Assembly (NCBI GenBank): GCA_963777605.1
Contig: CAVZRV010000031.1
Coordinates: 32,001 to 96,000 of the forward strand
Direction: 5' to 3'
DNA length: 64,000 nt
Source: an uncultured Acidobacteriota bacterium
Lineage (GTDB): Bacteria; Acidobacteriota; UBA6911; RPQK01; JAPXNP01
Below the pieces are notes generated by a model, which ran no database searches, had not been told where the DNA came from, and saw only the letters and a list, made by a program, of their open reading frames with translations. This document shows positions 139-19,773 of the stretch, in pieces. A program made the translations under genes and the position numbers. How positions within the stretch are numbered: position 1 is the first letter of the stretch; each line of letters starts with the position of its first letter.

Positions 139-981
139 ATGCGGACCGCAACACGTCTTTGCCTTCTGATGTCACTCGCGCTTCCGGTCGCCAACTGTTC
201 CCTGGTTCAAGAGGCCGCCCGGCCGGTCGCCCCGGGTCAATTCCGACTGATTCGCCTGCCGGTACTCATTCTTGGGCAGGAGGCGCCCGGGCCGGCTGAG
301 GCGAGGCTCACCCTGTCCATCGGGACCGATGATGAACTGCCTCAAGGCCCTCAGGGCTTTGAAGTCCTTCCTGACGAGAGCATTGTTGTCACCGACCCCC
401 TGGCGCATCGCCTAGCGATTTTCGACGGCCAGGGAGATTTTTTGCGGGCCTTCGACATCGGCTTTGCCGCTGACAGCGTTCGCTTCGAAGACAGCCTGCT
501 CCTGATCCGGCGCGCGTTCACGGGAGAGGAGTACTCACTCGATCTCACGGGAAATCTCCCGCCTCAGCTCCGTGGCCGTGCCCGCGACCTGGCGGGTGGT
601 GACCGGGCACTGATGGTGGAGCCGGGAGTTGGAGAGATCACCCCCAGTTCAGCTCGCGGGCTGGAGCAAGCCTCTTTCCCGGTGCGGATGAATGGGGATG
701 AGAATCCCCTGATCTCACTTCGTTATCTGGGCAGCGATAAAAACGGTTTTCATTATGTTGCCCTGGAGACCGCAGAGGTCGGAGACGCAGTTGAAGTCGC
801 CAAGCGTCTGCGAAAATACGGGCCGAACGGCGAACTGATCGCCGAGGCTCCAGACATTCCCAACGACTACTTTGTGAGTCCGGTTGACGAGTTTCGCCTT
901 CACGGCCAGTCAGTTTTCCACCTGGTCCCACTTCGCAACGAGGTGCGGATCGAAATCTGGGAGACCGGCGATGAGCGCTGA
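139..981 (+). CDS. Exported (probable lipo)protein with NHL-like beta-propeller blades
   Basis: 280 aa; signal peptide ending in lipobox-like PVANC; GPQGFEVLPDESIVVTDPLAHRLAIFD resembles an NHL repeat; GAGGGAG RBS upstream. Confidence 0.65.
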   Translation: MRTATRLCLLMSLALPVANCSLVQEAARPVAPGQFRLIRLPVLILGQEAPGPAEARLTLSIGTDDELPQGPQGFEVLPDESIVVTDPLAHRLAIFDGQGDFLRAFDIGFAADSVRFEDSLLLIRRAFTGEEYSLDLTGNLPPQLRGRARDLAGGDRALMVEPGVGEITPSSARGLEQASFPVRMNGDENPLISLRYLGSDKNGFHYVALETAEVGDAVEVAKRLRKYGPNGELIAEAPDIPNDYFVSPVDEFRLHGQSVFHLVPLRNEVRIEIWETGDER

Positions 982-1025
982 GGCCTCGGACGGACAGACC
1001 CGGCAGGATAAACGGTGAAACCTCG

Positions 1026-1670
1026 ATGAAAGCCATCTCCCGAATCTCGATTATTGCGCTCGCATCCGGGATGCTTTTCACCCTCCGGGGCCAGCCGGTT
1101 CGTGAATTGCCTCCCCTGACACGTGACCAGATCATCAGCACTGCACGCCAGTTCGCGGAACACCGGTGGACCTGCAAAGAGAGAAACCGCCACGCTCCGT
1201 GCGTCCCCAGCGGTTACTCCAGTGACTGGAAGGCCCAAGAGACCGTAACCGGGGTTCCCTACGATTGGGGCGGCATGGACTCGCCCGAAGTCTTCGACAG
1301 AAAGCTGGCTTCGGGTCAGGCGGCCGGCTCTCATTCCAGGCACGGAATTACCGACTGCACTGCGGGCATCGATTGCTCGGGTTTCGTCTGCTTTTGCTGG
1401 GGCCAGCCGGCTGTACACGAGTTTTCGACCCAGACCATTCGGTCCATCTCGGGGCGGCCCCGATACAACTGGTACACGGACATGAAGCCCGGAGATGCCC
1501 TCAATAAGCCCGGCAGCCACGTGGTGTTGTTCGCCGGGTACCGGCCGGATGGGAATCCCATAGTCTTCGAGGCTTCCGGCAGTGCAGGCAGGGTAATTCT
1601 AAACGACTGGAGTACTTGGTCCCGATTCAAGGGCTACTACCCTCTCCAATACAGCAGGGTCGTGCAATGA
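1026..1670 (+). CDS. Secreted NlpC/P60-like cysteine peptidase (putative peptidoglycan hydrolase)
   Basis: GVPYDWGG, GIDCSGFV (catalytic Cys), PGDAL..GSHVVLF (catalytic His), FEASG; N-terminal signal peptide. Confidence 0.8.
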   Translation: MKAISRISIIALASGMLFTLRGQPVRELPPLTRDQIISTARQFAEHRWTCKERNRHAPCVPSGYSSDWKAQETVTGVPYDWGGMDSPEVFDRKLASGQAAGSHSRHGITDCTAGIDCSGFVCFCWGQPAVHEFSTQTIRSISGRPRYNWYTDMKPGDALNKPGSHVVLFAGYRPDGNPIVFEASGSAGRVILNDWSTWSRFKGYYPLQYSRVVQ

Positions 1671-1692
1671 GACTCCCTCCTGGAGGATTAAG

Positions 1693-3738
1693 ATGAGAGC
1701 ATCCTGGCCTACCATCATTCTTTGCCTCACTTGCCTGCTTGTCGGCTGTTCGGACACTACCGGCGTGCCAGATTCTTCGAGTCCTTCGGGCCGCCGGCAG
1801 GAGTTTGGGCAACCGCCAGCCGGCAGCGAAGTCGAGTACGCTGACCCGACCCGACCGGCAACCAAGTGGGCACTGCTAGTGGGGATTAACGAATATCGTT
1901 ATCCTTCCCGGGTGTCTTCCCTGGCCGGCTGCGTCAACGACGTTGAGCTGATGAAGAGCGTGTTGATCGGGAAGTACGAGTACCCTGAAAGCCAAGTCCT
2001 GGTACTAACCAATGAGGCCGCTACCCACCAGGGGATTCTCCATGCATTCAGGGACCACCTGATTCGCAACGCCCAGCGCGATGACGTAGTCATTTTTCAT
2101 TACAGCGGTCACGGTTCGCAAATGCGAGACACTTCCGGGGACGAACTGGACGGCTGGGACGAGACGCTGGTCCCCCATGACAGCCGGGATCCGGAAGGTA
2201 AGGTTTTCGATATCAGCGACGACGAACTCAACACGCTTTTCCTCGAGCTCCAGCAGCGCACGCGAAATATCACGTTCATACTCGACAGCTGCAACTCGGG
2301 TACGGCTCTTCGAGCCGCAGGAAACGTCCGGAGGATCGCCCCTGACGAACGCACGCCGCCGGCTGAGCCTGGCGATTCCGGAACGCGGGGCGTCAGTGAA
2401 GGGTCCAACGATTGGAGGCCGGACAATCTCAACTACACTCTGATTTCGGGATGCCTTGCCGGAGAAAGTTCCTTTGAGCACTGGGCTGACAACCGGGAGC
2501 ACGGTGCCCTAACCTACTTCCTGGCCAGCCAGTTACGACAGGCAAGTCCCCAAAGTACCTACCGCGATGTCATGGATGCGGTCAGTGGAAAGGTCAACGC
2601 CCGCTATCCCGCTCAGCACCCTCAATTGGAGGGCGCGGGCTCGGACAAGGTCATTTTCGGGGACACTACCGTCCTGGCGAGACCCTTTGTCCTCTGCTCT
2701 CCACGGAGCCAGGGCACGGTTGAACTTCAGGCCGGCCAGGCATACGGAGCGACCATTGGCTCGGTTTTTGAGATCTTTGCCCCCGGCACGAAAGACTTCG
2801 GCAACACGGATAATCCCCTTGGCAGGTGCCAGGTGACACAGGTCGGGAATTTTAGTTCCGTCGCGAAACTGTCTACTCCGGTCACCATCCCGAACTTCTC
2901 CCGGGCGGTTGAATGGGATCACAGCTACCCGGAGTTTCGCCTGCGGGTCCATCTCCAGGGACTGGGGAACTCGCCGGCGCTGCGGGGAGTCCGGGAGGAA
3001 CTGGAGCAGTATCACCACCTCGAGTTCCAGCTGCAGCCCCGTGACTACCACGTACTGTTGCGCCAGGCCGGTGCTGAAATTGTCATGGAAGGGGGAGACC
3101 AGACGGAAATTGCACCCCGTACTCCCATCGACGACGCCGATGCTGTGGGGCTCGTGGTCCGCCGAACCCTGGATTGGGCCAAGTGGTTCAATATTCTATC
3201 GATTGCAAACCCGTCTCCGGGTCTCGATGTTCGATTGTCGGTTTCGGAGGCGGAGGGGGACGGAGGACGGGGGACCCCACTCCGCCGGATCGGGGCTCCG
3301 ACGCTCGTGCTGCAAGACGGTCAAGCGTTCGAGTGCAAGGTCGAAAACCGGTCGGACAAGGGCGTCTATCTTTCGATCCTGGATCTGTCCACGGACGGCA
3401 GCGTATCGATGGTGTATCCCCAATCGGGCACCGCCGACTTGCTGGTCCCAAACGGTGTCTGGCAGCGGCGCCTGAACACCTTTGTGCCAGATGGTCGGAG
3501 CTCCGTCAGGGATGTACTGAAAGTGTTCGCGACAACGAGCCCGGTGGACTTCCGATTCCTGCAACGGGACCCAGTGCGAGGGGGAGTCGCGCCGGAGGAG
3601 TTGAGCCGAAGCCTCGGGACGCCCTTGCGACAGCTGATTTCGTCGGTCGCCCTCGGCACGACCCGGAACGTGTCTTCCCCGGTTCCCTTGGGGGACTGGA
3701 GCACTTCCGAGCAGGTGATTGAAGTCAGGCGCGAGTAA
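1693..3738 (+). CDS. Lipoprotein caspase (Peptidase C14 family) with C-terminal DUF4384-like domain
   Basis: Lipobox LLVGC; WALLVGINEY, LAGCVND, HYSGHGSQ (His), LDSCNSG (Cys), GALTYFL, QHPQLEG; C-terminal VYLSILDLSTDGSVSMVYP...LKVFAT; GGAGG RBS. Confidence 0.88.
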   Translation: MRASWPTIILCLTCLLVGCSDTTGVPDSSSPSGRRQEFGQPPAGSEVEYADPTRPATKWALLVGINEYRYPSRVSSLAGCVNDVELMKSVLIGKYEYPESQVLVLTNEAATHQGILHAFRDHLIRNAQRDDVVIFHYSGHGSQMRDTSGDELDGWDETLVPHDSRDPEGKVFDISDDELNTLFLELQQRTRNITFILDSCNSGTALRAAGNVRRIAPDERTPPAEPGDSGTRGVSEGSNDWRPDNLNYTLISGCLAGESSFEHWADNREHGALTYFLASQLRQASPQSTYRDVMDAVSGKVNARYPAQHPQLEGAGSDKVIFGDTTVLARPFVLCSPRSQGTVELQAGQAYGATIGSVFEIFAPGTKDFGNTDNPLGRCQVTQVGNFSSVAKLSTPVTIPNFSRAVEWDHSYPEFRLRVHLQGLGNSPALRGVREELEQYHHLEFQLQPRDYHVLLRQAGAEIVMEGGDQTEIAPRTPIDDADAVGLVVRRTLDWAKWFNILSIANPSPGLDVRLSVSEAEGDGGRGTPLRRIGAPTLVLQDGQAFECKVENRSDKGVYLSILDLSTDGSVSMVYPQSGTADLLVPNGVWQRRLNTFVPDGRSSVRDVLKVFATTSPVDFRFLQRDPVRGGVAPEELSRSLGTPLRQLISSVALGTTRNVSSPVPLGDWSTSEQVIEVRRE

Positions 3739-3885: not shown

Positions 3886-5931
3886 ATGTCGCTGATCCGA
3901 CTCACAGCCGCATTCACTCTAGTCGCTCTACTGGTCAGCTGCCAGACCACCGACGTTCGGGATCGCGGAGTCGTGCTCAAGCCCGAACCACTTGAGATCA
4001 GCGATTTCGGCACCTTCCGCGCCCTAATCATCGGCATCAACGGTTACAAGCATTGGCCGGTCCTCCAGTTTGCGGAATCGGACGCGCGAGACATCCGGGA
4101 GATATTGATCTCCAGCTACGGTTTCCAGCCTGAGAACGTACTGTCTCTCATCGGGTCGGAGGCGACGGAGAGCCGCATCCTGAACTCACTGAAAAGCCTG
4201 CTGAACCAGGCCACCGGGCAGGACAACATCCTCGTGTATTACGCAGGACACGGTCAACTGGATCCGCTGACTGACACGGGCAACTGGATACCGGTCGACG
4301 GAGAGCTTTACGACGAGTCCTCCTGGATTCCATTTTCCGTCGTTCGAACTCTCGTCACGGCCGAAAAGGTGAAGGCGGGAAGGATCCTGATCATTACCGA
4401 TTCCTGTTACGGTGGAGCGCTGGCTCGCTCCGGGCCGACTCCGGGAAAGCTCAATCCCGAGGACTCCGGTTATATCGAGTCATTGAAGAAAGTGCTTGGC
4501 AAGAAGAGCCGCCAGACCATAGCGTCCGGCGGGTTCGAGCAGGTTCCAGACCGAAGCCATTTTGCTGAGCTGCTGAAGGGCGCCCTCCGAATGAACCCGT
4601 ATCCGGTGATTGACATGGAGTTCATCTTCTACACCGAAGTGTTTCCCCATCTCAGGCTCATCGGGACTCAGTACCCGACTATGGTTCGCATGGTGAACGG
4701 GCCGGAGGAGAACGGACAATTCATTCTCGTCAAGGACGGCGCGACCCTGGATGCGCTGAACAGCGAAGAGGGGGAAACGGACGACAGACCCGATCAGACC
4801 CCGAAAGAGCCGGACGCCAAGACCCAGGCGGACATGGAGTTCTGGAATGAGATCAAGGACTCTTCGGACCCTGAGTTTCTGCAGGAGTACCTCCGTCAGT
4901 TCCCGGACGGGATCTTTGCCCTGATTGCCCAGAAACGCCTGGACGACTTGATTTCACCCGATCAGCCGAGCTTGAGGGTTCCCAAGCTTGTGGGGATGAA
5001 CGTCAAAAGCGCGCTGGACATCCTGGTTGGACTGGGGTTCAAAGAAGGCCGCATCACCACCGAGAACAGCGGAGCGAGCGACGGCACGGTACTTACGCAG
5101 GACCCGGCTCCCGAGTCCCCTGCTGCCGATGGCGCATTGATCAATCTGGTCGTGGCCAAAGCGTCGGAAAAACTCAGAATGCCCCAACTCATCGGCTCCA
5201 GCCGCGCCAAAGTGGCAGACGCACTCGCCAAGTACGGACTGCTCATTGGAAAAGTAGCGTACGTCAGTCCGAAGGAGGCCGGAGTAAAGGAAGCGGGCAT
5301 CGTGGTGAAGCAGTCTCCTGAGCAGGGAATACCGGTCGAACCGAAGACGTCGGTCGACCTCGTTTTCACTCAGTGGGAGTTGACTGTGCCGGACCTGGCC
5401 GATATGCCTGAAGAGCGGGCGGTCGCGCTGATCCAGAAATCCGGCCTGACGGTCGGCGAGATCAAGCGGGTCCAGAAAGGCGAGGTCGGCAAAGTCATCG
5501 GCCAGTCACCCAGGGCCGGAACTCCGGTTGAGCCCGGCGCTGAAATCCTGCTCTATATAGCTTCGGCGTCCCCAGGCAAGTCTCTCGAAGCCATTGCGAA
5601 GTCGAGAAATATCGTCGCCCGGACTCTGAACCCCAGCTTGGCTGCCCCTGGCCTCAACAGCCCATCCAATGGGCAAGTGTTCGGTCACTATCCCCGCAAG
5701 ACTGAATTGAGCTGGAACCCGGTTGGAGGGGCGGTGAGCTATGTTGTTGAAGCCGAGTTTCAATCGGGCTCGGTCTGGCAGCCTCTCTTCACACAGGACG
5801 GCGTCGGGTCTACTCGATACACCTTCAACTTCATCGGAGCCCAGCCAGGTCGATGGAGGGTTTGGGCGATCGACTCGCATGGAAAAGCAGGACAAAGATC
5901 CGGTTGGTGGAGTTTCCGATACACCCGTTAG
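3886..5931 (+). CDS. Lipoprotein caspase with three PASTA domains and C-terminal FN3-like domain
   Basis: Lipobox LLVSC; ALIIGINGY, YYAGHG (His), TDSCYGG (Cys); helical FWNEIK..YLRQFPDG motif; PASTA repeats VPKLVGM..QDPAP, MPQLIG..QSPEQG, VPDLAD..QSPRAG; LSWNPV..SY..RWRVWA. Confidence 0.88.
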   Translation: MSLIRLTAAFTLVALLVSCQTTDVRDRGVVLKPEPLEISDFGTFRALIIGINGYKHWPVLQFAESDARDIREILISSYGFQPENVLSLIGSEATESRILNSLKSLLNQATGQDNILVYYAGHGQLDPLTDTGNWIPVDGELYDESSWIPFSVVRTLVTAEKVKAGRILIITDSCYGGALARSGPTPGKLNPEDSGYIESLKKVLGKKSRQTIASGGFEQVPDRSHFAELLKGALRMNPYPVIDMEFIFYTEVFPHLRLIGTQYPTMVRMVNGPEENGQFILVKDGATLDALNSEEGETDDRPDQTPKEPDAKTQADMEFWNEIKDSSDPEFLQEYLRQFPDGIFALIAQKRLDDLISPDQPSLRVPKLVGMNVKSALDILVGLGFKEGRITTENSGASDGTVLTQDPAPESPAADGALINLVVAKASEKLRMPQLIGSSRAKVADALAKYGLLIGKVAYVSPKEAGVKEAGIVVKQSPEQGIPVEPKTSVDLVFTQWELTVPDLADMPEERAVALIQKSGLTVGEIKRVQKGEVGKVIGQSPRAGTPVEPGAEILLYIASASPGKSLEAIAKSRNIVARTLNPSLAAPGLNSPSNGQVFGHYPRKTELSWNPVGGAVSYVVEAEFQSGSVWQPLFTQDGVGSTRYTFNFIGAQPGRWRVWAIDSHGKAGQRSGWWSFRYTR

Positions 5932-5981
5932 CGGAGAGGAACCACAAGTGAGTCCCCCCAATTTCTAAGGAGATTCAATTC

Positions 5982-6338
5982 ATGAAAAAGAAGCTATCAA
6001 TGGCCGATCACAAGACCCTGTCACTGGTGTCAAGTGTCCTGCTGCTGTGGTCCTTTTCCCAGACCATGGCTGTCCCTCCGCTCTTCTTCCGGCCCGAGCT
6101 GGTCCAACCAGCGGCAACCGTTTGCCCGGGGCCCGCGGAGGGGTTTGAGCTGCTCGTTCAAGACGCAGACGCTGACCGAGGTTGCTGCCAGTGGAAAGAC
6201 TCCAAGGGAAACAAGTGCTCCTATACGAACCGGGGTTACTGCCGCAAGAAGGCTGAAGAACTTCAGGTCCAGTTCGAGTTTCACAAAGACAAGACCTGCC
6301 AGACGGTTGGCGGCTGCCCGGCGGTGACACCCCCTTGA
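5982..6338 (+). CDS. Small secreted cysteine-rich protein
   Basis: AAGGAG RBS; hydrophobic signal; 7 Cys including GCC...C...C...C...C. Confidence 0.65.
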   Translation: MKKKLSMADHKTLSLVSSVLLLWSFSQTMAVPPLFFRPELVQPAATVCPGPAEGFELLVQDADADRGCCQWKDSKGNKCSYTNRGYCRKKAEELQVQFEFHKDKTCQTVGGCPAVTPP

Positions 6339-6570
6339 AGCTCGCTGAACCATCGCGTGAAGTTCTTGTGAGTGAAATTCACGAAATCACGGGACTCTTG
6401 GCTCTGCTGAGGATATAATCGCTCTCAAATATCCAATCCATTCCATCATCAAGTACGGGTTCCAGATAACTTGAAGCCTTCCTGAAGAAAACCCGGGCTG
6501 GTGTCCAGGTTAGATGGTCGGTTTCTGCTGGCCCGACGCACTGCACCATCACGGTGCGAAAGGGGGGACT

Positions 6571-6891
6571 ATGGATTTGGCGAAACTGCTTTCCTGGATC
6601 CCAGGCTGGCTCGGATTCCTCCTGCTCATTCTGGTCGGCCTGGCCATGACGCTCAACGGTGCGGCCAATTCGAACCTCGATTCGGTGAATCGACTCGGCT
6701 TCCTCGTCTTCGGAATCTGCGCGATCTTGATCGGCGTGTTTTCCTGGATTGCCGGGGGCACTTCGAAGGTGAAGGGACGGGAGGGAACGGTCGGAGTCAA
6801 GGTTGCCGCCTCGGATATGCCCTGGTGGGCGTGGCTCGTTGATGTGGGAGTGCTGGTGATTTCCATCCTGATCTTTGTGATCGGACGATGA
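6571..6891 (+). CDS. Small membrane protein (~3 TM)
   Basis: ATG at 6571 after AGGGGGG RBS; three hydrophobic segments. Confidence 0.7.
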   Translation: MDLAKLLSWIPGWLGFLLLILVGLAMTLNGAANSNLDSVNRLGFLVFGICAILIGVFSWIAGGTSKVKGREGTVGVKVAASDMPWWAWLVDVGVLVISILIFVIGR

Positions 6892-10759: not shown

Positions 10760-13322
10760 GTTCACTCACCGTCTCGATTTCGTGCTCTCCTGAGCAAAAG
10801 AGCCAGGTTTCGGGCAGCGTTACCGTTTCCAGAAACTCGCGCCTGGAGGAAGATTCGTAGCTGAGGCCTCCATTGTCAGATCGATGAACACCCTCGCTCG
10901 TACCGGTCATCAAGAACCGATGGTCAACATCGGAGGCCAGTGATCTGATCGAATGGTACTTCCCCACCTCACGCATCGGGAGACCGCAGCCGACTTTCGG
11001 CGGCTGCCACTTGGGCTCGTGAGAGGCCGGCTCGATCTTGAAGACTCCGGCCTGGTCCGTCGCCGCGAACAACACCTCGCCTTGAAAAGCCAGTGCCCAG
11101 CAGGTTCCTCCCTGCCATCCCTCACTGAAGAACTGCCCTTCCAACTGAATCTGGGAGCCCCGGAGCTCCCACCGGTAGCAGCCCTTTCCCTCCGCTTTCC
11201 CGGGAACTGCAATGCCGGCCCACAAATAGCGAAGGGGACCAACTTCCTGAACCTCGAGCACCCTGACATCTTCTCCTTCCAGGCCAATCCGCGTGAAACT
11301 GCCGGCCTTCGCTCCTTGAGTGGAGAGAAAGACACCAACAACGCCTCGCCCCGCGACCGCAACCGACACCTCCCCCTGGGCATCTGACGACGACGCCACT
11401 GCGTAGAATCCCAGATCCTGGTTGCCAGGCTCGACCAGAATCTGGAGGGGGACTGCCTCCGGCTTCATCGCAAGTTCATAAAGCCCGACGTCCGTGGCCA
11501 GGATCAGGATCGGCTCTCCTTCCCTATTGATCCAGTCCATGTCAAAGACGGTGAAACCCGTTTGAGCGGCCCTGCGCCACGTCTCACCACAGTCAGATGA
11601 GACGTGGACCCGTGAAGCCCCCGGCTCTGACTCCACTGCCGAGGTCACGGCCAGCAACCCGGGCCGGGACCGATGGACCTTAACCTGACGCAAATCCTCT
11701 CCGGGGAACCTGCCTGCCGTTTCCCACCCGTTACCGTCGTCCAGCGACCGGAATAGAACAGAGCCGGCAGCCGCATACCAGGCACCCCTCTGGAAGGTAT
11801 CCGCGGCGATCGAGGTCACGTCCCTTTCGGGCACCTCGTCGACGAGAAGTCGAACCTGATCGGCGTAGCTCACGCCCGAGTCGGAAAGCAGGAGGTCATA
11901 AACGTGGGATGCCCGCAAGGGATAACCGAACCTCCAGCCAGCAGATCGCTCCGAGGGGAGTGGATTGATGGCCGAATGGAGCCGGTCCAGGACCCGGGTC
12001 CTCACCGCCTCAGGCGATTCCCCCATGTGAACAACAACCCGCGCTTTGATGCGAACCTGCTTGTAGCGAACCCAGTTCACCAGGCAGGTGGTTCCCAGGG
12101 GTCGCCTGCGATCCAACTCTCCCTGAATTCTCTCCCTTTCGGTTTCCGTCTGGTGCTCGGACAACGTATCCAGCGACACCCGTTCCCCGCTCCGGGCCGC
12201 CTCAAGAACATTCGGAACCAGCAAAACCTCCACAGTCCCCGGCGCCGCGTGGACCCAGAGAGCAGCCTTTGTAAACGCCTTGGCGCGGGCTACGGCCCCG
12301 GAAGCCCGCAGGGCAGCCAACTCATAGTCTCGACCGGTCACTGCCCGGCTGAGTGACCTCAACTCCTGGGGCCCTCTGATTAGGGCGTTCTCCAGGCTTT
12401 CTGTGTTCCTTCCGCCGGTGGCCGGAGTAGGATTGACCACACTGATACCGGGAAGGGGATCGCGAAGGACTGTGAGGAGCCCGGCGCTTACATTACCCTC
12501 GGCTCCGCCTCCATGACGATACCACAATCTGATTTCCCGTTCCGCCGGAGGAACCTCGGCCAGGAGACTCGACGAATCGGCCAGCATCTGACCGGAGGCG
12601 GACATCCGGGCAGATGGTGCGAAGACGATGCTTCCAGTGAAGCGGTCGGCCAAATAGACAAAGCGCTCCCGTTCAATGTCGGTAAAACTGCCGACCTCTC
12701 GCCAGATCCGGAAGGCCTTTCCCTGGAATTCGACGGCCCTGGCCCGGCCGTCCAAGGCTGTGCGATCCGTTTCGACGCCGACCATGAGGTCCAAATCATC
12801 TCCCGTTGGAGAGATCAACGGAGAATGGGAGGTGTACACCCTTTGGCCGGCCAGCCCAGTTCCTCGACCCGCGAGTTCTCCTTCGACCAGTTCGCAGTGA
12901 CAGGCGAGGACATCTACTCCCGAGGCTTCGGGAGTAAGGGTTGCGGACGCGGTCGTCGCAAAGGAGACAATCTTCTGGGCACTGCCTCCCCTGGCCATGG
13001 TTACCCGGGTTCCCCGGGGGACCTCGAGGGATGCCGTCCCGGGGCGACTGCGACTGAATCGGAGCATAACCTGGGCGGCCGAAGGCGGCATCAATTGAAC
13101 TCCCATCAAGCGCAGAAATTCGATGAATGCCTTCTCTGGAAGCCGGTTCAGGCGGTAGATCATCGCTTCAGTGAGATAGGCGAAGAGCTCGAGCAGGACC
13201 ATGCCGGGATCGCTGGGAGAGAAGTCGGTCCATTCCGAGGTCTGTTGTGGAATCCGACTGCGTGCCTCCTCCAGGAGTTGCCGAAAATCACGATCATCGA
13301 GGTTTGGCGGAGTCAGAGACAT
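10746..13322 (-). CDS. CIS baseplate J/gp6-like protein with inserted Asp-box beta-propeller
   Basis: PNLDDRDF..WTDFSPSDPGMVLLELFA..RLNRLPEK; GGGAEGNV, ATGGRNTES, RAVTGRDYE; Asp-box-like SLDDGNGW, SSDCGETW, SDNGGLSY; terminal LFCSGEH. Confidence 0.9.
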   Translation of the reverse strand: MSLTPPNLDDRDFRQLLEEARSRIPQQTSEWTDFSPSDPGMVLLELFAYLTEAMIYRLNRLPEKAFIEFLRLMGVQLMPPSAAQVMLRFSRSRPGTASLEVPRGTRVTMARGGSAQKIVSFATTASATLTPEASGVDVLACHCELVEGELAGRGTGLAGQRVYTSHSPLISPTGDDLDLMVGVETDRTALDGRARAVEFQGKAFRIWREVGSFTDIERERFVYLADRFTGSIVFAPSARMSASGQMLADSSSLLAEVPPAEREIRLWYRHGGGAEGNVSAGLLTVLRDPLPGISVVNPTPATGGRNTESLENALIRGPQELRSLSRAVTGRDYELAALRASGAVARAKAFTKAALWVHAAPGTVEVLLVPNVLEAARSGERVSLDTLSEHQTETERERIQGELDRRRPLGTTCLVNWVRYKQVRIKARVVVHMGESPEAVRTRVLDRLHSAINPLPSERSAGWRFGYPLRASHVYDLLLSDSGVSYADQVRLLVDEVPERDVTSIAADTFQRGAWYAAAGSVLFRSLDDGNGWETAGRFPGEDLRQVKVHRSRPGLLAVTSAVESEPGASRVHVSSDCGETWRRAAQTGFTVFDMDWINREGEPILILATDVGLYELAMKPEAVPLQILVEPGNQDLGFYAVASSSDAQGEVSVAVAGRGVVGVFLSTQGAKAGSFTRIGLEGEDVRVLEVQEVGPLRYLWAGIAVPGKAEGKGCYRWELRGSQIQLEGQFFSEGWQGGTCWALAFQGEVLFAATDQAGVFKIEPASHEPKWQPPKVGCGLPMREVGKYHSIRSLASDVDHRFLMTGTSEGVHRSDNGGLSYESSSRREFLETVTLPETWLFCSGEHEIETVSEHEPE

Positions 13323-13753
13323 CAGGAGGCCTCTCCGGACAGGTTGAAGGGAAATGAAAGTCGGGCCCTCTCCAGCGTTTTACGCACCCGGTACTCCAGA
13401 AGAATGTCGAGTCTGCCCGGGTCCGACTTGTTCGGTTCAGCATCCAGAAAGAGGATCTCGATCCGGGGTTCCCACCGGACCAGGCACTGTCGGACATAAT
13501 GAATCGCAAGACCGGCAGTCGTTTGATCGTTAGGCGAAAACTGGAGCCGGGCCAGTTCGCACCCGTACTGGGGGCGCATCACCCGCTCACCGGGGCGCGT
13601 GGAGAGCAGGAGGAAAATGGCCTGTCGCACTGAGGCCTGATCCTCAACCATCCCGATTCCTCCCGTTGGGGAGATGCGAATACCTGCATCGCTTTCCGGA
13701 ACATCGAGGTCAGGGAGATCGAATCGCCACGCCCGATATCTTGGAACCGTCAT
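13322..13753 (-). CDS. gp25/GpW baseplate-sheath initiator
   Basis: VRQAIFLLLSTRPGERVMRPQYGC...RWEPRI. Confidence 0.93.
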   Translation of the reverse strand: MTVPRYRAWRFDLPDLDVPESDAGIRISPTGGIGMVEDQASVRQAIFLLLSTRPGERVMRPQYGCELARLQFSPNDQTTAGLAIHYVRQCLVRWEPRIEILFLDAEPNKSDPGRLDILLEYRVRKTLERARLSFPFNLSGEAS

Positions 13754-14094
13754 TCCGTCCCCTCCCCCACAAGGTCCTGTCCCGGGTTTCTCACTTTGTA
13801 ATCAACCGTTCCCGGCGGAGTCCCGTCGGTCAGCCCGCGCACGCTCTCCAGGCAAACCTTGCGGCTGTCAATCCGAAGGAGATCCGAGTAGCCCACTCGG
13901 ACCTTCAGGGTCACCTGGCATGGCTTGATTCCGATCCCGACGTTTGGACAGCCCTTGATCTCTTTCCTTTCGGGATCGGCTTCGACCAGCACTCTGCGGT
14001 CCTCGACCGTAACCAGGTCCTGCGTGGGCGGCACCTCAATGTTGCCCAATTCGTGCAGGCAGACGAGAATTGCGTCTTCGGTCAGCCAGTTCAA
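13750..14094 (-). CDS. PAAR-like (DUF4280-type) spike tip protein
   Basis: CLH..GCP..KPC metal-ligand pattern; lies between VgrG-like gene and gp25; TTG start abuts the upstream stop. Confidence 0.7.
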   Translation of the reverse strand: MNWLTEDAILVCLHELGNIEVPPTQDLVTVEDRRVLVEADPERKEIKGCPNVGIGIKPCQVTLKVRVGYSDLLRIDSRKVCLESVRGLTDGTPPGTVDYKVRNPGQDLVGEGTE

Positions 14095-15615
14095 TCATGC
14101 CCTCCGAAAATCAATGTTGCTCCCTCGAATCACAATCGGGTTTCCAGGTGCCCGGATCTCGAGACCGGTCATGGCGTGCAAAAGCACCTTCTCGGGGGTC
14201 AGTTCCACAAAGCTGCCCTGGCTATTCTCGAGGCGAATGCGGGACCCGGAGTCGTCCAGGGTAATCTTCTGACCAGCTGGCGTCTGCAAGGTATACCTGC
14301 GGACTCGGCCGTCCTCGAGGCCCCAGTCGGGAACGGACTTGACTCCGAACAGGCCTCCAAGGACAACCCCCTGGCTGAGATCCTCACGGGCAAACAGCAC
14401 CAGCACCTGATCGTCCAGGTCGGGCAATGCCACCAGCCCTTTGCCAGCTCCGGCCCCGACTGTGACCACCCCCAGCCAGTTCGTCTCGATTCCCCCGAGC
14501 GATGGCAGGACCGCCTGGATCCGTCCCAGACCTTCGGGATCATCAACACTCGTCACAACCCCAACGGTTACGATGGGGCCTCGAGCGCGTTGCGAGAACG
14601 GTGCAACCGCGGTCGACAACTCCGACAGGTGACCTCGGGCGGCGTCAACTGTGTGGGTCACCTCGGTCACGACATAGTCTCCATCCAGAGAAGCGCCCAG
14701 CCCATCGACCTCGGCAACCACCCCGGGCTCCAGATCGGAATTGCCCGCAGCTATTCCCCAGAGCACAACTTCGTTGGCGATGCGGATGTCGAGTTCGGCC
14801 TGAGCCGTCGCATCGGCCAGGGCGTCATCGGTCCAGACATCGTTCAAAATCAGGCGCTCTCCGGTTCCCCCGAGCCGGCCAGGCGAGACTTCGCGCGAGA
14901 TCCGGCGACCGTTACGACCCGCCTCCGCCTCGCCGCGACGTTCTTCAACCCGACCCAGATCCCAACCGAGTGATGCGACACTTCTGCATGAAGGATCACC
15001 GTTGATCTCTACTCGCGCTTCAAGGAGCGTGGTTCCGACCGAGAGCGGCACCCGCTGATCACGTCCGGCGAGACTGAAGAGCTGCACTGAAGGCCCATCG
15101 AGGAAGAAGAACAAACCGGCACGCTCACAGGATTCTCGCAACAACTCCAAATCCGTCTGTCCCCACTGCGCCAGGCGATTCCAGACCGGCCCGGTTTCCC
15201 CGGCCTCGATGGAAAGACCCAGGTCCCCGACCAGTTCGCGGGCCAGCCCCTCACAATTCAGCGAAGTGAAAACTCGGGTCGGCTGGCGCTTCTGGAGCCG
15301 ATGGAGCAGGTCATAAGCTCGAATCGTCATCAGATGTCCGCCCGCACTTTCAAAAACGTGTTCAACCGCGGTGATCTCGCCTTCAAAAATGGAGCCGGAA
15401 AGACCTTCGGCCTCAACCCGCAATTTGGATCCTGGTTCCACCGGACTCGCCGGTTCTCCTCGATTGGGTGGATCCAGAAAGGTCAGTATGCAAAGTGCAG
15501 GCATCGAAAGGCGCTGCTGAACCCGGACCGCACCGAGATTGCCGTGCCGCACTGGATCGGTCGCAGTGCCATCGATTTCGACAATGATCGAGGGCACGGA
15601 TGCCGAATGCGCCAT
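14095..15615 (-). CDS. VgrG-like hub-spike (gp27-gp5 / baseplate V)
   Basis: IFEGEITAVE, QWGQTDLELL, VTEVTH, GVVTSVDDPEGLGRI, LPDLDDQVLV (OB fold), short beta-repeat tail. Confidence 0.9.
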   Translation of the reverse strand: MAHSASVPSIIVEIDGTATDPVRHGNLGAVRVQQRLSMPALCILTFLDPPNRGEPASPVEPGSKLRVEAEGLSGSIFEGEITAVEHVFESAGGHLMTIRAYDLLHRLQKRQPTRVFTSLNCEGLARELVGDLGLSIEAGETGPVWNRLAQWGQTDLELLRESCERAGLFFFLDGPSVQLFSLAGRDQRVPLSVGTTLLEARVEINGDPSCRSVASLGWDLGRVEERRGEAEAGRNGRRISREVSPGRLGGTGERLILNDVWTDDALADATAQAELDIRIANEVVLWGIAAGNSDLEPGVVAEVDGLGASLDGDYVVTEVTHTVDAARGHLSELSTAVAPFSQRARGPIVTVGVVTSVDDPEGLGRIQAVLPSLGGIETNWLGVVTVGAGAGKGLVALPDLDDQVLVLFAREDLSQGVVLGGLFGVKSVPDWGLEDGRVRRYTLQTPAGQKITLDDSGSRIRLENSQGSFVELTPEKVLLHAMTGLEIRAPGNPIVIRGSNIDFRRA

Positions 15616-15618: not shown

Positions 15619-16359
15619 CTAGCTCCTTTCCCCGTGGATCGATGGGATTCTGAGCAGAGCGCCCGACGCGATTCGGAGCGGATCCTCCACGTTATTGGCC
15701 CACGCGATCAGCCTCCAGAACACCGGACTTCCATAGCGGCGAAACGCGATGTCCGACAGACTCTCGCTGGCTCTTCCTCCATCCGGATCCGTGCCCCCGA
15801 TCACCTCGAAAACCCCGTCCGTGTCCTGCGGTTCGCCCGAAACGGACTCAGTTGATAAAGCAGCAGGCAGGCTTTCGGGAGCGTTCTGCGCCTCTTTGAA
15901 CATCTCCGGAACGCGGACGAGTCTCATCCGCAGCCAGGATCTTCTGGGCGATCCGACCGAATCGAACTGCTCGAACCGCTCCGAGACTGCGGTAATAACG
16001 CCGGGAATGTTCCAGATTTTGCCCCAGACGAACCGAACGACTGGAGGCCTGGCTGAAGATCCGTCGGAGGCGCTGTTTTCGGCCAGCTGCCAAAGGGGGG
16101 CCGTCAGATTCCGAACGTTTTCGGTCTGAATGGATGAACCGGACAGCGTCGTGTCGAAGAGCAGGTCCAACGTCAACTCCGTGGTTCCTCCTCCGGTGAA
16201 CACCAGGGGATCGTCGGATAGTCCTCCGCCGGACACCCGGCCATTCAGCGATTTTCGGGCCTGAACACCGGCCAGTCGCCGCACCACGAGCGAGTCCGGG
16301 TTGAGGAGACACCGGATGCGTTCCCCGGTTTCCTCGACGAGAAGGGCTACCCGTTCCAT
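15619..16359 (-). CDS. CIS tube initiator (Afp7-like) with C-terminal LysM-like domain
   Basis: LNPDSL, LTLDLLFDT, PPVVRFVWG, FDSVGSPRR; SLSDIAFRRYGSPVFWRLIAWAN..DP..G..LRIP. Confidence 0.87.
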   Translation of the reverse strand: MERVALLVEETGERIRCLLNPDSLVVRRLAGVQARKSLNGRVSGGGLSDDPLVFTGGGTTELTLDLLFDTTLSGSSIQTENVRNLTAPLWQLAENSASDGSSARPPVVRFVWGKIWNIPGVITAVSERFEQFDSVGSPRRSWLRMRLVRVPEMFKEAQNAPESLPAALSTESVSGEPQDTDGVFEVIGGTDPDGGRASESLSDIAFRRYGSPVFWRLIAWANNVEDPLRIASGALLRIPSIHGERS

Positions 16360-17390
16360 CGTCTACCTTCCTGTTCCCGACTGAGCCGCCTCTTTCGCTT
16401 TTCGTCCTGCTCCCCCGATTGGATCTCAGCGTACCAGTCCCCGCCCGGGTCAAGGAGGGACGGCCACGGATCATCCGGTGGCAGTGGGAACTGACCCGGC
16501 CGGACATCCGCAATCGGCTGACTGAGGTTCAGCTGACTTGCTCCATCTGGTGAAAGCACAAACGCGGCAGTGCTCAGCGGCTCGAACGGCGCTGGAAACA
16601 CGCCGGCTCCCGGTAAGGTTGCGACGGCCTGCTCCGTAACGTTCCGGCCGGGCACCGTCGCGCCCGGGTCCCGGCGGTCACCTCCCCCATGCGGAGGAAG
16701 AACCCTGGCGCGGTTCCCGTTGAGTCGGTTTTCCGCGATCGCTGCTTTCTGGTTCTGGGGGCAGGTAAAGGGTAGCTCCCGTGAAACTGGTTTGGCAATC
16801 GAATGGCGTACTCCTCCGGGACCCGCAACGGAAGCAGGTTCGGAAGCGGAACTCTCCTCAGACAATCGACCCTCGACCAGACGATTCCGGGTTACAGATA
16901 CGCCTTCTTTTCTCCGCTGGAAAGCCGTTTCCTTCCGATCTGTCGACCCGTCCGAATCTGACGGTTCAACCGGAGGAACGAACGCTGAGCCGGAGTCCCG
17001 CGATTCAAGCGCCCGGTGGCTCACAACCGCGGGTTGGAAAACGGGCTGAGGTCGGCCTTCCCGATCAGTCCGAATCCCTTTGACGCGGCGAGACCTTACC
17101 CCAGGCTTTCTTCCCTGACCCCAGTGGACCCACTTCAGCTCCCCGGCCTTTATGGATTTGCCGGCACCGTACTCGGAACGTTCCCGGATGTGCTCCAGCC
17201 AGTGCGGCGGGGGCTCGGGATAGCTCGCCAGAAAAGCCCGTTCGAGCCAATCCGGCGCCACAGACGGGCGGTGAGGAGACATTGGCGGTCTGCGGTCGAA
17301 CCCGAGTTTTCCTGCCAGCACGTTGCTCCAGGCGATGACTATGCGAAGCAATCTGAGAAAGAGTCTTCTTGCCAGATCGAGCAGCATCAT
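16347..17390 (-). CDS. Low-complexity hypothetical protein inside the CIS operon
   Basis: 347 aa ORF fills the gap between tube and initiator with coupled junctions; amphipathic N-terminus, Pro/Ser/Arg-rich middle. Confidence 0.6.
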   Translation of the reverse strand: MMLLDLARRLFLRLLRIVIAWSNVLAGKLGFDRRPPMSPHRPSVAPDWLERAFLASYPEPPPHWLEHIRERSEYGAGKSIKAGELKWVHWGQGRKPGVRSRRVKGIRTDREGRPQPVFQPAVVSHRALESRDSGSAFVPPVEPSDSDGSTDRKETAFQRRKEGVSVTRNRLVEGRLSEESSASEPASVAGPGGVRHSIAKPVSRELPFTCPQNQKAAIAENRLNGNRARVLPPHGGGDRRDPGATVPGRNVTEQAVATLPGAGVFPAPFEPLSTAAFVLSPDGASQLNLSQPIADVRPGQFPLPPDDPWPSLLDPGGDWYAEIQSGEQDEKRKRRLSREQEGRRWNG

Positions 17391-17393: not shown

Positions 17394-17876
17394 TTAGCCT
17401 CGATCCAGAGATTCGAATACCAACGTGATTGACTCAATGGCGGCTTCATTCGTCAAGGCATCCAGCGGAGCTCCACACCATTCGGCAGGCCAGGCATTAA
17501 TCAAGTTCCAACGGAGCATCTCGGTCACCCCATCAGCATCGAGCATCACAATCGAGACATTCCGGCGTTCGACCCGACCCTGAACGGCGGTCAAAAACCA
17601 CTCCCACAGGTCGGTTGATGTCGTCAGACCGTATCGCAGGGTGATGTCCCCATAATCAACCTGGCCCGGCAGCCTGCGGACCACCTGGCTGGTCCCACCC
17701 TCACGATAACGAATGGCATCGACACTGATACGCATACCGCTGCAGGCAGTGAAATGACCCTCGGTCACACCCTGGACTTCGAGTTTGAAATTGTAAGCGC
17801 GGAAGGGATCCACCCAACCACCTGTCTGAGCGCCTGTTTCTGTCTCCTGAGGCGGGGTTTCGGCAGGTTCCGGCAT
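17394..17876 (-). CDS. CIS inner tube protein (T4 gp19-like)
   Basis: DPFRAYNFKLE, YREGG, LPG..DITLRYG, WNLINAWP, IESITL. Confidence 0.95.
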   Translation of the reverse strand: MPEPAETPPQETETGAQTGGWVDPFRAYNFKLEVQGVTEGHFTACSGMRISVDAIRYREGGTSQVVRRLPGQVDYGDITLRYGLTTSTDLWEWFLTAVQGRVERRNVSIVMLDADGVTEMLRWNLINAWPAEWCGAPLDALTNEAAIESITLVFESLDRG

Positions 17877-17888
17877 GGTTCATCTCCT

Positions 17889-19082
17889 TTATTCGGTTTC
17901 GATTTCGGCACCGGAGGCACTCTGGCCAATCCGGAAAACGATAAATTCAGCAGGTTTTACGGGGGCCATTCCGATCAGAATGACGACGCGGCCAGCGTCG
18001 ATCGATTCCGGGGGATTGGTCTCTTCGTCGCATTTGACGAAAAATGCCTCTTCTGGAGTGCGCCCCATCAAGGCACCGTCCCTCCAGATATTGGTGAGAA
18101 AGGCGCTCACATCACGCCGGATCTTCTTCCACAGGGTCTGATCGTTCGGCTCGAAAACGATCCACCGGGTACTGTTCGCGATTGACTCCTCGACCATGCT
18201 GAACAGTCGGCGGACGTTTAGATACGTCCACTCGCTCCCCTGCTCGGCCAGAGTCCGGGCTCCCCAAACCAGGATCCCGTCACGGGGAAACAGGCGGATA
18301 CAGTTGACTCCGTGCTGGTTCAGTTCTCCCTGTTCCTCTCGGGTCAACCGGTACGTCACGTTCAGGGCGCCACGAATTCTCTCGTTCGCGGGAGCCTTGT
18401 GAACGCCGCGAGTGGCGTCCGACCGAGCATAGATCCCGGCCAGGTGGCCCGATGGGGCTATATCCACAAAGTCATTCGGCGGCAGCGGATCCCTCACGGT
18501 AATTCTCGGAAAGTAGACCGCCCCCCAGGGGGATGCGGGAGGCCTCAGTCCACCAGCGGGCTCTCCCTCTGACTCATCCTCGCCTGGTTTCTTCTTCTTG
18601 GTCGAGACGACGGCAACCTGCGTCAGGAGGTCCAATCTGGGGATTGCTTCCGGGCAGTCAAGGATCGCAAAGCGGTCCTTCATCCCCTCGCAGTGATCGA
18701 GCAATGCGGCGTACGAGGCCGCGTCTGCATAACCTGGTGCCGCCACGATCGCGACCTCATCGATTTCCCTGAGAACGTCGAGCCCGGATCGTTTCGTTCC
18801 CCCTCCGGAAATATCTGTGCAGTTGACCACGAAGCACCGACGTCCGCCATTGGCAAAGAAGCCATAGACCGCCTGGGACAGAGGAGTGCTGGGGCTGCCG
18901 TTCGGCACGTACTCGCCCACGAACTGGGTCCAATTGTTGATCGCAATGGCCTGGTTCACGTGCGCGCCCGCATCCGGGGCTTTTCCTACGAACCCGGCTG
19001 TACTCGTGCCGGTTGGCTGGATCGGACGAGGTCCCATCGAAACTTCTTCAACATAGATGCCCGGTGCAAGGTAGGTCGGCAT
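17889..19082 (-). CDS. CIS contractile sheath protein
   Basis: PTYLAPGIYVEE, FFANGG, PSGHLAGIYARSD..GVHKAPAN, VWGARTL, YLNVRRL, FEPND, PVKPAEF. Confidence 0.96.
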   Translation of the reverse strand: MPTYLAPGIYVEEVSMGPRPIQPTGTSTAGFVGKAPDAGAHVNQAIAINNWTQFVGEYVPNGSPSTPLSQAVYGFFANGGRRCFVVNCTDISGGGTKRSGLDVLREIDEVAIVAAPGYADAASYAALLDHCEGMKDRFAILDCPEAIPRLDLLTQVAVVSTKKKKPGEDESEGEPAGGLRPPASPWGAVYFPRITVRDPLPPNDFVDIAPSGHLAGIYARSDATRGVHKAPANERIRGALNVTYRLTREEQGELNQHGVNCIRLFPRDGILVWGARTLAEQGSEWTYLNVRRLFSMVEESIANSTRWIVFEPNDQTLWKKIRRDVSAFLTNIWRDGALMGRTPEEAFFVKCDEETNPPESIDAGRVVILIGMAPVKPAEFIVFRIGQSASGAEIETE

Positions 19083-19083
19083 G

Positions 19084-19773
19084 TCAATCCTCCATCAATT
19101 GGAATCGAATCAAGAGTGGCCCTTCATCTTTCGTCCAGCCTGGTGACGGATCCACCCGGACCTCTCGCCCCCTGGCCTTGACCTCGATCATTGCCGGAGG
19201 AGGATCCGTTGGAACTTGGGCGAAATGAAATCTGCCCTGTGCGTCGGTCGTCGTGTATTGCCCGGTTCCCGGAATCTCGATCCGAGCCCCCATCACAGGG
19301 ACATCTCCCGGGCCGAGAACTCTTCCAGCCAAAGGCCTGACCGGTGACTGCCTGACTACCAAAGGCTGCAGTACAGGTCTTGACTTCGGCTGACGGCGGA
19401 CCTGCCTGCACGGCACTCCGAGTTTGAAACTCGGCCGGGGAGAGACCCCGAAGCCCGCCCAGACAGCAGGGGAAACCCGGTTCAGGTCAAGCTGGAACTC
19501 GGCCTGCTCCATGGCGGCAAACAGCAACTGTCCCAGCCACTTATGCGCCTCCTCCGGGTCAGTCGACCAGGTGGTGACCAGGTACTGAAGGGAAACCTGG
19601 AGAGGCGGCCGAAGGTTCGTGCGAAGAGGAGGGCTGTCCGACAGTTCGAGCAAGTAAAGACTGACACCCCTGAACTCGCTGCCGGAAGGCCCCGGCTCTG
19701 TCAGAATGACATCCACTCGATCTAAAACAGCCAGGATCCAGTCACGGACCCGCCGATCGATTTCATCGATCAT
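19084..19773 (-). CDS. Pvc16/DUF4255-like terminator cap with C-terminal carboxypeptidase-regulatory-like domain
   Basis: MIDEID..VSLYLLEL..LQYLVTTW..LGQLL; C-terminal GRVLGP..PVMGARIE..TTDAQGRF. Confidence 0.8.
   Translation of the reverse strand: MIDEIDRRVRDWILAVLDRVDVILTEPGPSGSEFRGVSLYLLELSDSPPLRTNLRPPLQVSLQYLVTTWSTDPEEAHKWLGQLLFAAMEQAEFQLDLNRVSPAVWAGFGVSPRPSFKLGVPCRQVRRQPKSRPVLQPLVVRQSPVRPLAGRVLGPGDVPVMGARIEIPGTGQYTTTDAQGRFHFAQVPTDPPPAMIEVKARGREVRVDPSPGWTKDEGPLLIRFQLMED

Follow-up and report, generated by a model that had tools for sequence, protein, structure and literature searches.

A contractile injection system with a PASTA-bearing membrane protein and linked exported caspases in an uncultured acidobacterium

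Cytoplasmic contractile injection systems (CISs) are recent discoveries, and how these particles reach the membrane and which signal makes them fire is an open question. To our knowledge, CisA is the sole adaptor studied so far. Here we describe a CIS locus within a 64,000-nucleotide stretch of DNA from an uncultured Acidobacteriota bacterium (contig CAVZRV010000031.1 of assembly GCA_963777605.1, positions 32,001 to 96,000; this whole stretch is hereafter the window), in which the baseplate genes are followed by the gene of a bitopic membrane protein with two PASTA domains and converge on a cluster that encodes exported caspases. The gene of CisA (Sco4242) follows immediately on those of the baseplate; this bitopic protein is required for contraction or firing and for cell death, is predicted to bind Cis11, and has an outer domain proposed as a sensor (PMC12237407). 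A second group of proteins, Sco4256-58, combines a similar N-terminus with one transmembrane (TM) helix and a variable ricin/lectin-like C-terminus. In the triple mutant the tube lumen is empty, for which reason these proteins were taken to be cargo or effectors (PMC10066040). In the account of Vladimirov et al., members of the Sco4256 family start with a domain like that of pilus chaperones, after which come a TM helix and a variable domain of toxin or lectin type (PMC10020575); the family is reported from class IId loci of Actinobacteria, Cyanobacteria and Chloroflexi, and as largely confined to CIS loci (PMC10020575, PMC10066040). These nearest studied relatives act within the producer cell (PMC10066040, PMC12237407, PMC12998442).

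The CIS core of the window is complete: sheath, tube, tube initiator, spike, gp25, baseplate J and a gpI-like wedge all score above the Pfam cut-offs and lie in one operon of eleven genes (19773-10214, minus strand). From the cap to the P2_I gene the intergenic gaps or overlaps measure -20 to +12 nucleotides, so an earlier sequence-only reading of this DNA was right to call the operon tightly coupled; the layout that it described, a CIS operon ending in a bitopic protein with two PASTA domains and converging on a caspase/PASTA cluster, was confirmed by Pfam and by the gene coordinates. Related loci were collected in a scan with the J alignment, one genome per species, which yielded 231 confirmed relatives; the best 80 of these 231 were kept with 10-kb flanks, and counts out of 80 refer to them unless stated otherwise. 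In what follows, G000 is the genome of the window (contig G000:C31), other G numbers are other genomes, and L numbers are fetched loci, L018 being that of G014. The structural genes are:

19084..19773, minus strand: cap/terminator-like protein with a CarboxypepD_reg-like domain (Pvc16_N E 2.5e-5, 24.5 bits against a cut-off of 27; CarboxypepD_reg E 3.3e-7; both below cut-off)
17889..19082, minus strand: contractile sheath, 397 residues (Phage_sheath_1C E 4.6e-22)
17394..17876, minus strand: tail tube protein (Phage_T4_gp19 E 2.6e-38)
16347..17390, minus strand: variable protein of 347 residues at the tape-measure or cargo position (no family match in Pfam, NCBIfam or PADLOC)
15619..16359, minus strand: tube initiator (CIS_tube E 1.1e-14)
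14095..15615, minus strand: VgrG-like spike/hub (Phage_base_V E 5e-19, Phage_GPD E 7e-10)
13750..14094, minus strand: conserved protein of 114 residues between spike and gp25 (77/80 loci; no Pfam, NCBIfam or PADLOC match)
13322..13753, minus strand: gp25-like baseplate wedge (GPW_gp25 E 1.5e-24; 80/80 loci)
10746..13322, minus strand: baseplate J, 858 residues, with a C-terminal extension of about 360 residues (Baseplate_J E 1.8e-17)
10214..10765, minus strand: P2 gpI-like baseplate wedge (Tail_P2_I E 1.5e-5; 78/80 loci)

The cap-like gene was found in 65 of the 80 loci, every time at the first operon position. The 347-residue protein is conserved in G014 at its N-terminus alone (34%), and in other loci a gap of about 1.1-1.3 kb is kept at the corresponding position. 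No gene for an AAA+ ATPase of the Afp15/Cis15 type was found in the window, which has zero matches to PF00004, the nearest on the contig being about 170 kb off, and a promoter and terminator scan of positions 5900-10300 returned nothing exceeding shuffled controls. The lineage also has no tail-fibre genes at the fibre position; in their stead it carries a conserved inner-membrane module, described below.

Among solved structures, those nearest to the sheath and J of the window belong to the cytoplasmic CIS of Streptomyces coelicolor. Against all of the PDB, the best sheath matches were 8bky/9gtp (E 2.9e-100) and 8bl4/9gts (E 1.6e-97), with Anabaena All3325 (E 1.4e-56), PVC, Afp and 7adz trailing well behind, and the best match of J was S. 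coelicolor 9gtp_1K, that is Cis11 (E 6.8e-56), over residues 121-492 only. The S. coelicolor CIS models in the CisA paper (PMC12237407) are 9GTP and 9GTS, and the comparison drawn at first reading with the Streptomyces cytoplasmic CIS and its membrane recruiter proved apt. The C-terminal extension of J (residues 500-858; 10749-11825, minus strand) is conserved across 44 aligned members. In three Streptomyces-type loci fetched from Actinomycetes genomes for comparison (L127 of G130 and L128 among them), J aligns solely to residues 1-493 of the window's J, i.e., without the extension, which marks the whole lineage and is missing from J of the Streptomyces type. A search of the extension against PDB profiles was empty; motifs resembling S-x-D-x-G-x-x-W are visible in it by eye.

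A tree of J with 83 rows (the window, 79 loci and the three Streptomyces-type loci as outgroup; L090, with a partial J, was omitted) separates the lineage from the outgroup by a long, fully supported branch. Its rows mostly cluster by phylum, the window pairing with G014 (100*) and G020 joining next (96*). The J alignment omits L044 and L050, in which the reading frame of J (gene at about 10001-12600) is broken by stop codons or a frameshift. The 80 loci span at least seven phyla, namely Acidobacteriota, Verrucomicrobiota, Chloroflexota, Pseudomonadota, Actinomycetota, one cyanobacterium and one member of the Dormiibacterota; the actinomycetotal loci comprise about 35 from Micromonospora or Verrucosispora and a few metagenome-assembled genomes, and the pseudomonadotal loci include that of the cultured Methylomonas aurea.

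The lineage carries a conserved three-protein inner-membrane module consisting of one or more copies of the PASTA-type membrane protein (hereafter the anchor), a small bitopic protein and a protein with six TM helices. In the window, the module and a further small membrane protein are encoded as follows:

9020..10021, minus strand: bitopic anchor, 333 residues, two PASTA domains (Pfam E 2.6e-24)
8508..9010, minus strand: small bitopic protein with an N-terminal TM helix and a Cys-containing outer domain (family in 63/80 loci)
7749..8453, plus strand: orphan membrane protein with six TM helices (profile matches in 61/80 loci)
6514..6891, plus strand: small protein with three TM helices by hydropathy script, adjoining the six-helix gene

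The anchor is composed of an immunoglobulin (Ig)-like N-domain (about residues 1-115), a TM helix (about residues 122-144) and the two PASTA domains; it has no signal peptide and carries lysines (KK) before the helix (signal peptides and TM helices were assessed throughout by eye plus a hydropathy script). Because of these lysines, and because the outer domains of the family have typically extracytoplasmic folds (PASTA, lectins, PD40, thioredoxin), we infer that the N-domain is cytoplasmic and the PASTA domains periplasmic. The anchor gene begins 192 nucleotides after that of P2_I, an arrangement that recurs widely: the family, identified by tblastn and then by profile searches, is present in 74 of the 80 loci; its members share a conserved N-domain and have their TM helix around residue 126. 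Among the loci with at least 1.5 kb of sequence after P2_I it lies downstream on the same strand in 68/71, within 300 nucleotides in 56 of those. The three remaining loci are L029; L036, where the anchor lies upstream; and L041, which meets the contig end. The proposal that a PASTA membrane protein is part of the CIS is therefore borne out by a family that directly follows P2_I in 68/71 loci.

Anchor genes occur in one to five tandem copies per locus, in which the N-domain is kept and the outer domains are swapped. PASTA is the commonest outer domain of the lineage's membrane module. With profiles built here, it was found in 42 of 100 anchor open reading frames (ORFs) and in 30/80 loci, none of them of the Micromonospora type, whose anchor proteins are annotated in their sources as CBM6 or carbohydrate-binding. 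Pfam detected PASTA in 39 of 62 anchor members, with Kelch, discoidin, DUF346, chagasin and thioredoxin in one or two each and a weak NPCBM_assoc match in seven. On a wider scale, the N-domain profile retrieved 3617 proteins at E<=1e-3 (1143 at E<=1e-30) from 1.84 billion cluster representatives, and in every match listed the N-domain lies no further than about 20 residues from the N-terminus; a Pfam scan of 130 from the best 150 of these global matches found PASTA in 61, and lectins, PD40 propellers, thioredoxin and more in others. The N-domains match Ig-like Pfam families (NPCBM_assoc, CARDB, Cep192, ASH and HYDIN-type), and against PDB profiles nothing was significant (best E 0.039; fimbrial chaperone E 0.97). 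The NCBIfam model PknB_PASTA_kin covers residues 113-293 of the anchor only.

PASTA is a well-understood sensor of peptidoglycan and lipid II, so its prevalence among the outer domains yields a specific signal that can be tested, namely the state of the cell wall. The whole 6.7-Mb genome of the window encodes four PASTA proteins, and the only two on the window's contig are the anchor and one of the caspases described below; hence the early remark that PASTA occurs on both sides of the junction and nowhere else in the window holds. As further observations on these proteins, the outer domain of one anchor copy is a cysteine-protease inhibitor of the chagasin family (I42), and other copies have thioredoxin, tectonin, B-lectin or PD40 propellers; the third anchor copy of L023 is broken into an N-domain ORF and separate PASTA ORFs. 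A short protein with a TM helix and two or three PASTA domains (about 250-300 residues; G000:C7:15026-15616), which is unlinked to any CIS, was matched in 33/60 relatives, so PASTA belongs to normal envelope biology in this diderm group.

The six-helix protein is a hallmark partner of this CIS lineage. It was suspected as a partner from the outset, and proved near-universal: it is present in 48/49 loci with full flanks. Its gene may follow the anchors in convergent orientation, lie on the same strand as these, or precede the cap gene. Searches of Pfam, NCBIfam, PDB and PADLOC returned no match for the protein. The outer domain of the small bitopic family ends in a GG..L..C.G..C motif. In the window this gene is split over two frames, 9010-8768 and 8903-8508, which corrects the coordinates first assigned to the gene after the PASTA protein (8903-8508) to 9010-8508, with a frameshift; the G014 copy is intact at 174 residues, and the split reflects a true frameshift or else a mistake in the assembly. 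The three-helix protein at 6514-6891 is conserved beside the six-helix gene in G014 (73%) and in L049, from a pseudomonadotal metagenome-assembled genome (64%). Greedy clustering of ORFs, muddied by shadow ORFs in loci of high guanine-plus-cytosine content, was used solely to pick out small families, and profile searches took its place.

Facing the operon, a compact same-strand cluster (139-8453, plus strand; gaps of 10-175 nucleotides) ends with the six-helix gene. Besides this gene and that of the three-helix protein, it contains:

139..981, plus strand: protein of 280 residues, probably exported, with an N-terminal signal-like segment (no family match)
1026..1670, plus strand: exported NlpC/P60-like enzyme (weak Pfam NLPC_P60 match, E 0.0039, 17.6 bits against a cut-off of 23)
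1693..3738, plus strand: lipoprotein C14 caspase, 681 residues, with a C-terminal domain of no known family (Peptidase_C14 E 2.3e-27, 96.6 bits, cut-off 21.4; lipobox LLVGC by eye)
3886..5931, plus strand: lipoprotein C14 caspase with three PASTA domains and a C-terminal domain, hereafter caspase-PASTA (Peptidase_C14 E 4.3e-14, 53.2 bits; PASTA E 2.1e-32 in three stretches; lipobox LLVSC)
5982..6338, plus strand: small Cys-rich secreted protein, 118 residues (no family match)
6917..7738, plus strand: ceramidase-like multi-TM hydrolase (Pfam Ceramidase E 2.3e-10, 40.8 bits, cut-off 32.5)

By eye, the NlpC/P60-like protein shows DCSGF, which we take to be the motif of NlpC/P60 enzymes, and the caspases show SGHG and DSCNSG (1693-3738) and AGHG and DSCYGG (3886-5931), presumably the His and Cys dyad motifs of C14 caspases. 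PADLOC returned domain-level matches only, i.e., a generic caspase model and PD-T4-6 through the PASTA part.

The operon and the cluster form a 20-kb block that is a co-inherited unit encoding a CIS of the cross-phylum lineage. G000 and G014, which belong to different genera, share only the block from about 345 nucleotides before the window to position 19783, between unrelated flanks, and G014 has all of its genes except the ceramidase-like one. The cluster as first outlined was thus a real region, with the amendments that the conserved block starts about 345 nucleotides before the window and that it includes the further small-TM gene at 6514-6891. An ORF for another small TM protein (125 residues from stop to stop; 78% in G014), running on the plus strand from about 372 nucleotides before the window start to position 2, lies at the left edge of the block. 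Among 61 relatives, a count that includes G000 and G014, full-length caspase-PASTA and full-length J occur in the same three genomes (G000, G014 and G020). The 61 also include the unpublished G018, which is negative for J, caspase-PASTA, NlpC/P60 and the first caspase, has one housekeeping PASTA match, and supports no positive claim made here. Linkage, whose loss from sister genomes had been named as a possible refutation, is kept in both of those that carry this CIS. The locus of G020, which belongs to another family, is rearranged: caspase-PASTA, the Cys-rich gene and the cap gene lie on one strand, and a second caspase gene, related to 1693-3738, is divergent from the six-helix gene, which faces the small bitopic gene. 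The Cys-rich gene follows caspase-PASTA in both G014 (74%) and G020 (52%), and precedes the cap gene in G020.

The best reading of these observations, to which we give a probability of about 0.5, would be a CisA/Sco4256-like, envelope-coupled CIS with a peptidoglycan-sensing anchor. The particle would assemble in the cytoplasm, and the N-domain of the anchor would hold its baseplate against the cytoplasmic membrane from the inside, perhaps by way of the C-terminal extension of J. Periplasmic PASTA domains could tie docking or firing to the state of the peptidoglycan (uncross-linked strands, lipid II or muropeptides), and firing would breach the producer's own membrane, leading to regulated death under wall stress as in Streptomyces. 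The periplasmic caspases might act on the same wall signal, either as a trigger that clips the membrane module's outer domains or as executioner of the envelope; the periplasmic protease cascade and the role in lysis, defence or contact killing that were initially suggested are conjectural. A broader proposition, which we regard as doubtful, is a cross-phylum class of envelope-coupled intracellular systems in which a three-protein inner-membrane module reads peptidoglycan via PASTA or other wall-binding domains and gates the firing of a cytoplasmic particle, with periplasmic caspases of diderms as triggers or executioners. If this broader proposition were true, bacteria would possess a wall-damage-induced, caspase-assisted suicide pathway, and the Sco4256-58 "effectors" would be recast as inverted tail fibres.

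Several points weigh against an envelope-coupled CIS with a peptidoglycan-sensing anchor. The location of the particle, the binding of the anchor and the firing are all conjectured from gene content. The most similar studied architecture, that of Sco4256-58, was interpreted as cargo or effectors (PMC10066040), and the anchor profile matches one Streptomyces-type Ig-TM protein weakly (hidden Markov model E 0.028; hhalign probability 18.6%, E 0.0013). The small bitopic gene of the window is frameshifted, so that its system may be impaired, or the assembly wrong. Regarding the caspases, 74 of the 80 related loci lack them, caspases like 1693-3738 are present in G040 and G041, which lack this CIS, and CIS genes were found in 0/18 caspase-anchored metagenome loci; these 18 distant loci were returned by a metagenome scan with the caspase-PASTA alignment, which found no close ortholog. 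Finally, outside the window and G014 the CIS is not accompanied by the NlpC/P60, 280-residue or ceramidase-like gene.

These caspase counts, together with the varied partner domains of the enzymes (PASTA, TPR, Sel1, FGE-sulfatase and DUF4384) and the restriction of the NlpC/P60 gene to G000 and G014 (2/61 relatives and 1/80 loci), also fit a rival view, somewhat unlikely in our estimate, in which the caspase, NlpC/P60 and Cys-rich genes are mere island neighbours of the conflict or envelope type, and only the anchor, the small bitopic and the six-helix protein belong to the CIS. Against this view stands the placement of the caspase genes in several loci. The C14 profile, confirmed by Pfam, found them in 6/80 loci (L018, L025, L032, L038, L056 and L094): in L032 and L025 the gene lies within the operon, between the genes of the 114-residue protein and gp25, and in L056 it ends 4 nucleotides before the cap gene. 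Those of the window stand in a tight same-strand cluster with the six-helix core gene, beside which relatives of 1693-3738 are also found in G020 and L094 (30% over residues 55-600; the ortholog in G014 has 68%), and both caspase types stay linked through the rearrangement in G020. Genome-wide, Pfam C14 proteins cluster at the CIS in G063 (3/3) and G065 (5/10, within about 20 kb), with 1/2 in G064 and 0/3 in the Micromonospora genome G061; the genome of the window has four Pfam C14 matches, to which the second caspase of the locus is to be added. The caspases of the six loci start with a signal peptide or lipobox by eye, except that of L038, and that of L025 is cut at its N-terminus.

Because of the copies inside the operon, the 3/3 clustering in G063 and the linkage kept in two rearranged sister genomes, the exported caspases are non-randomly linked to the CIS, as a recurrent but optional accessory, seen in several diderm branches, whose linkage requires at least six changes on the J tree. 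The co-occurrence anticipated by the sequence-only reading therefore stood for the PASTA-TM family and for 7749-8453, was weak for C14, and failed for NlpC/P60. Two other genes must be removed from the system as first conceived. The ceramidase-like ("CREST") gene has no match in G014, in G020 or in any of the 80 related loci and is a local insertion outside the conserved system, and the exported 280-residue protein has an ortholog, inside the 20-kb block, in L018 alone among the 80 (58% identity). Separately, a run of several caspase genes was noted on one contig of G040 (G040:C260:1727-9330), a relative without J of this lineage.

If the Ig-TM-PASTA proteins were instead CIS cargo or effectors, i.e., membrane-inserting toxins whose PASTA or lectin domain aims at the wall of a target, self or neighbour, their resemblance to Sco4256-58 as published, tandem paralogues included (PMC10020575, PMC10066040), would be readily explained. 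The Streptomyces-type loci indeed encode, near the sheath, Ig-Ig-TM-variable proteins that match the same Pfam Ig-like families as the anchors (these were equated with Sco4256 from the description in the papers rather than from a named sequence), and the swapping of outer domains resembles the diversification of effectors or receptor-binding proteins. One such protein, encoded beside the sheath in L127 (13791-15434, minus strand; G130), carries PG_binding_1, which implies that wall-binding outer domains also occur in the Streptomyces-type branch. Nevertheless, we consider a cargo role unlikely. The anchor genes lie at the tail-fibre position in 68/71 loci, and the lineage has no separate CisA-like gene, a zinc-ribbon protein with a TM helix near residue 291 having been seen in the Streptomyces-type L128 only. 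A C-terminal domain destined for the outside of the membrane would also make awkward cargo for the tube lumen, and the sequence match to the Streptomyces proteins is weak, as given above. The three Streptomyces-type loci have no significant match to the anchor or six-helix profile; the anchor profile found none at E 1e-5 in 150 sampled Actinomycetes (19 with a CIS sheath), part of the candidates being scored; and a word-based protein search with a Micromonospora anchor returned almost exclusively Micromonospora-type proteins, with no Streptomyces protein among the 120 matches listed.

The replacement of tail fibres by a conserved multi-protein membrane module, the many diderm phyla among the hosts, and the wall binding of PASTA and PG_binding_1 would also be expected of a type VI-like machine, in which a PASTA-held envelope complex fixes the baseplate, the tube is fired outward into neighbours, and the caspases and NlpC/P60 remodel the wall or are themselves secreted weapons. 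We judge this distinctly unlikely, given that the closest relatives studied so far work within the producer cell (PMC10066040, PMC12237407, PMC12998442), that no outer-membrane component or recycling ATPase is linked to the locus, the window being devoid of AAA matches, and that the same module occurs in the monoderm Micromonospora. Least probable of all is an ordinary extracellular CIS, freed by lysis of the producer with the help of the wall hydrolase and proteases and encoded beside membrane proteins unrelated to targeting, which would suit the Afp/PVC-like structural core and the adjoining exported NlpC/P60-like enzyme but not the missing tail-fibre gene, the poor conservation of NlpC/P60 with the CIS, the near-universal membrane module or the Streptomyces cytoplasmic CIS as nearest solved relatives.

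Beyond the block, a fused HTH_3 and M78 (ImmA/IrrE-like) regulator is encoded on the opposite strand about 860 nucleotides beyond the start of the cap gene (20632-21729, plus strand). It matches PADLOC PD-Lambda-2_B (E 4e-33); its three neighbours have no PADLOC match, and no counterpart lies beside the G014 locus. Three tandem tyrosine recombinase genes occur 14-17 kb upstream of the window, followed by genes for patatin-DUF3376 and PEP-CTERM proteins and for a GH10 enzyme (together 3204-6432 and 8182-11364 in L001, which is G000:C31:12001-32000).

Collectively, these data reveal a large sister lineage with a three-protein membrane module in Acidobacteriota, Verrucomicrobiota, Chloroflexota, Gammaproteobacteria, Actinomycetota and others, and tie two orphan families, the six-helix and the small bitopic proteins, to it. 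Cultured carriers, namely Methylomonas aurea, Ktedonobacter and many Micromonospora, make the PASTA anchors, their partners and the caspase linkage testable. The repeated linkage of exported caspases joins two kinds of bacterial cell-death machinery, a link that we did not find in print: full-text literature searches, which left supplementary tables that may list such domains or C14 outside their scope, returned no paper joining PASTA with CIS and none joining caspases with CIS loci. The view that the whole combination was uncharacterised must be qualified, since the architecture of the anchor matches that described for Sco4256-58; the PASTA anchors, the six-helix and small bitopic partners, and the caspase linkage appear to be unreported.

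Compared with the Streptomyces cytoplasmic CISs (class IId; CIS-Sc and CIS-Sv), the system of the window likewise lacks tail fibres and encodes a bitopic membrane protein directly after the baseplate wedge genes. It differs in its sheath (397 residues, against 520-620 in Streptomyces-type loci), in the roughly 360 additional residues at the C-terminus of J, in the absence of a linked AAA ATPase from the window, in its two further conserved membrane proteins and in the mostly diderm hosts of its lineage. The post-baseplate proteins themselves are also unlike: that of the window has a folded Ig-like N-domain, a TM helix at about residue 125 and a PASTA outer domain, whereas L128 encodes after P2_I a CisA-like protein of 469 residues with zinc-ribbon Pfam matches, a long disordered region and its TM helix near residue 291, which matches the anchor profile at the TM helix alone (E 2.9; CisA itself was compared by description). 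With Sco4256-58 the anchor shares an Ig-like first domain, one TM helix, a variable C-terminal domain, tandem paralogues and linkage to a CIS; the Streptomyces-type proteins, however, have two Ig-like domains and are encoded near the sheath, whereas the window anchor has one and its gene lies at the tail-fibre position, and the proteins are read as anchors here and as cargo in the papers.

The thylakoid-anchored CIS of Anabaena is held at an internal membrane through TM segments in proteins associated with its baseplate, and has been tied to cell death (PMC10020575, PMC12998442), but it belongs to a different clade and uses different anchoring proteins, and the passages on it in these papers mention no PASTA domain and no caspase link. 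The anchor also resembles established PASTA sensors (the PknB/Stk1 kinases and PBP2x) in carrying PASTA repeats after a TM helix, but it has neither a kinase nor a transpeptidase domain, its cytoplasmic part being an Ig-like domain tied to a CIS. The finding is real and well above chance, and its kind is that of a cytoplasmic or membrane-adapted CIS rather than a categorically new system.

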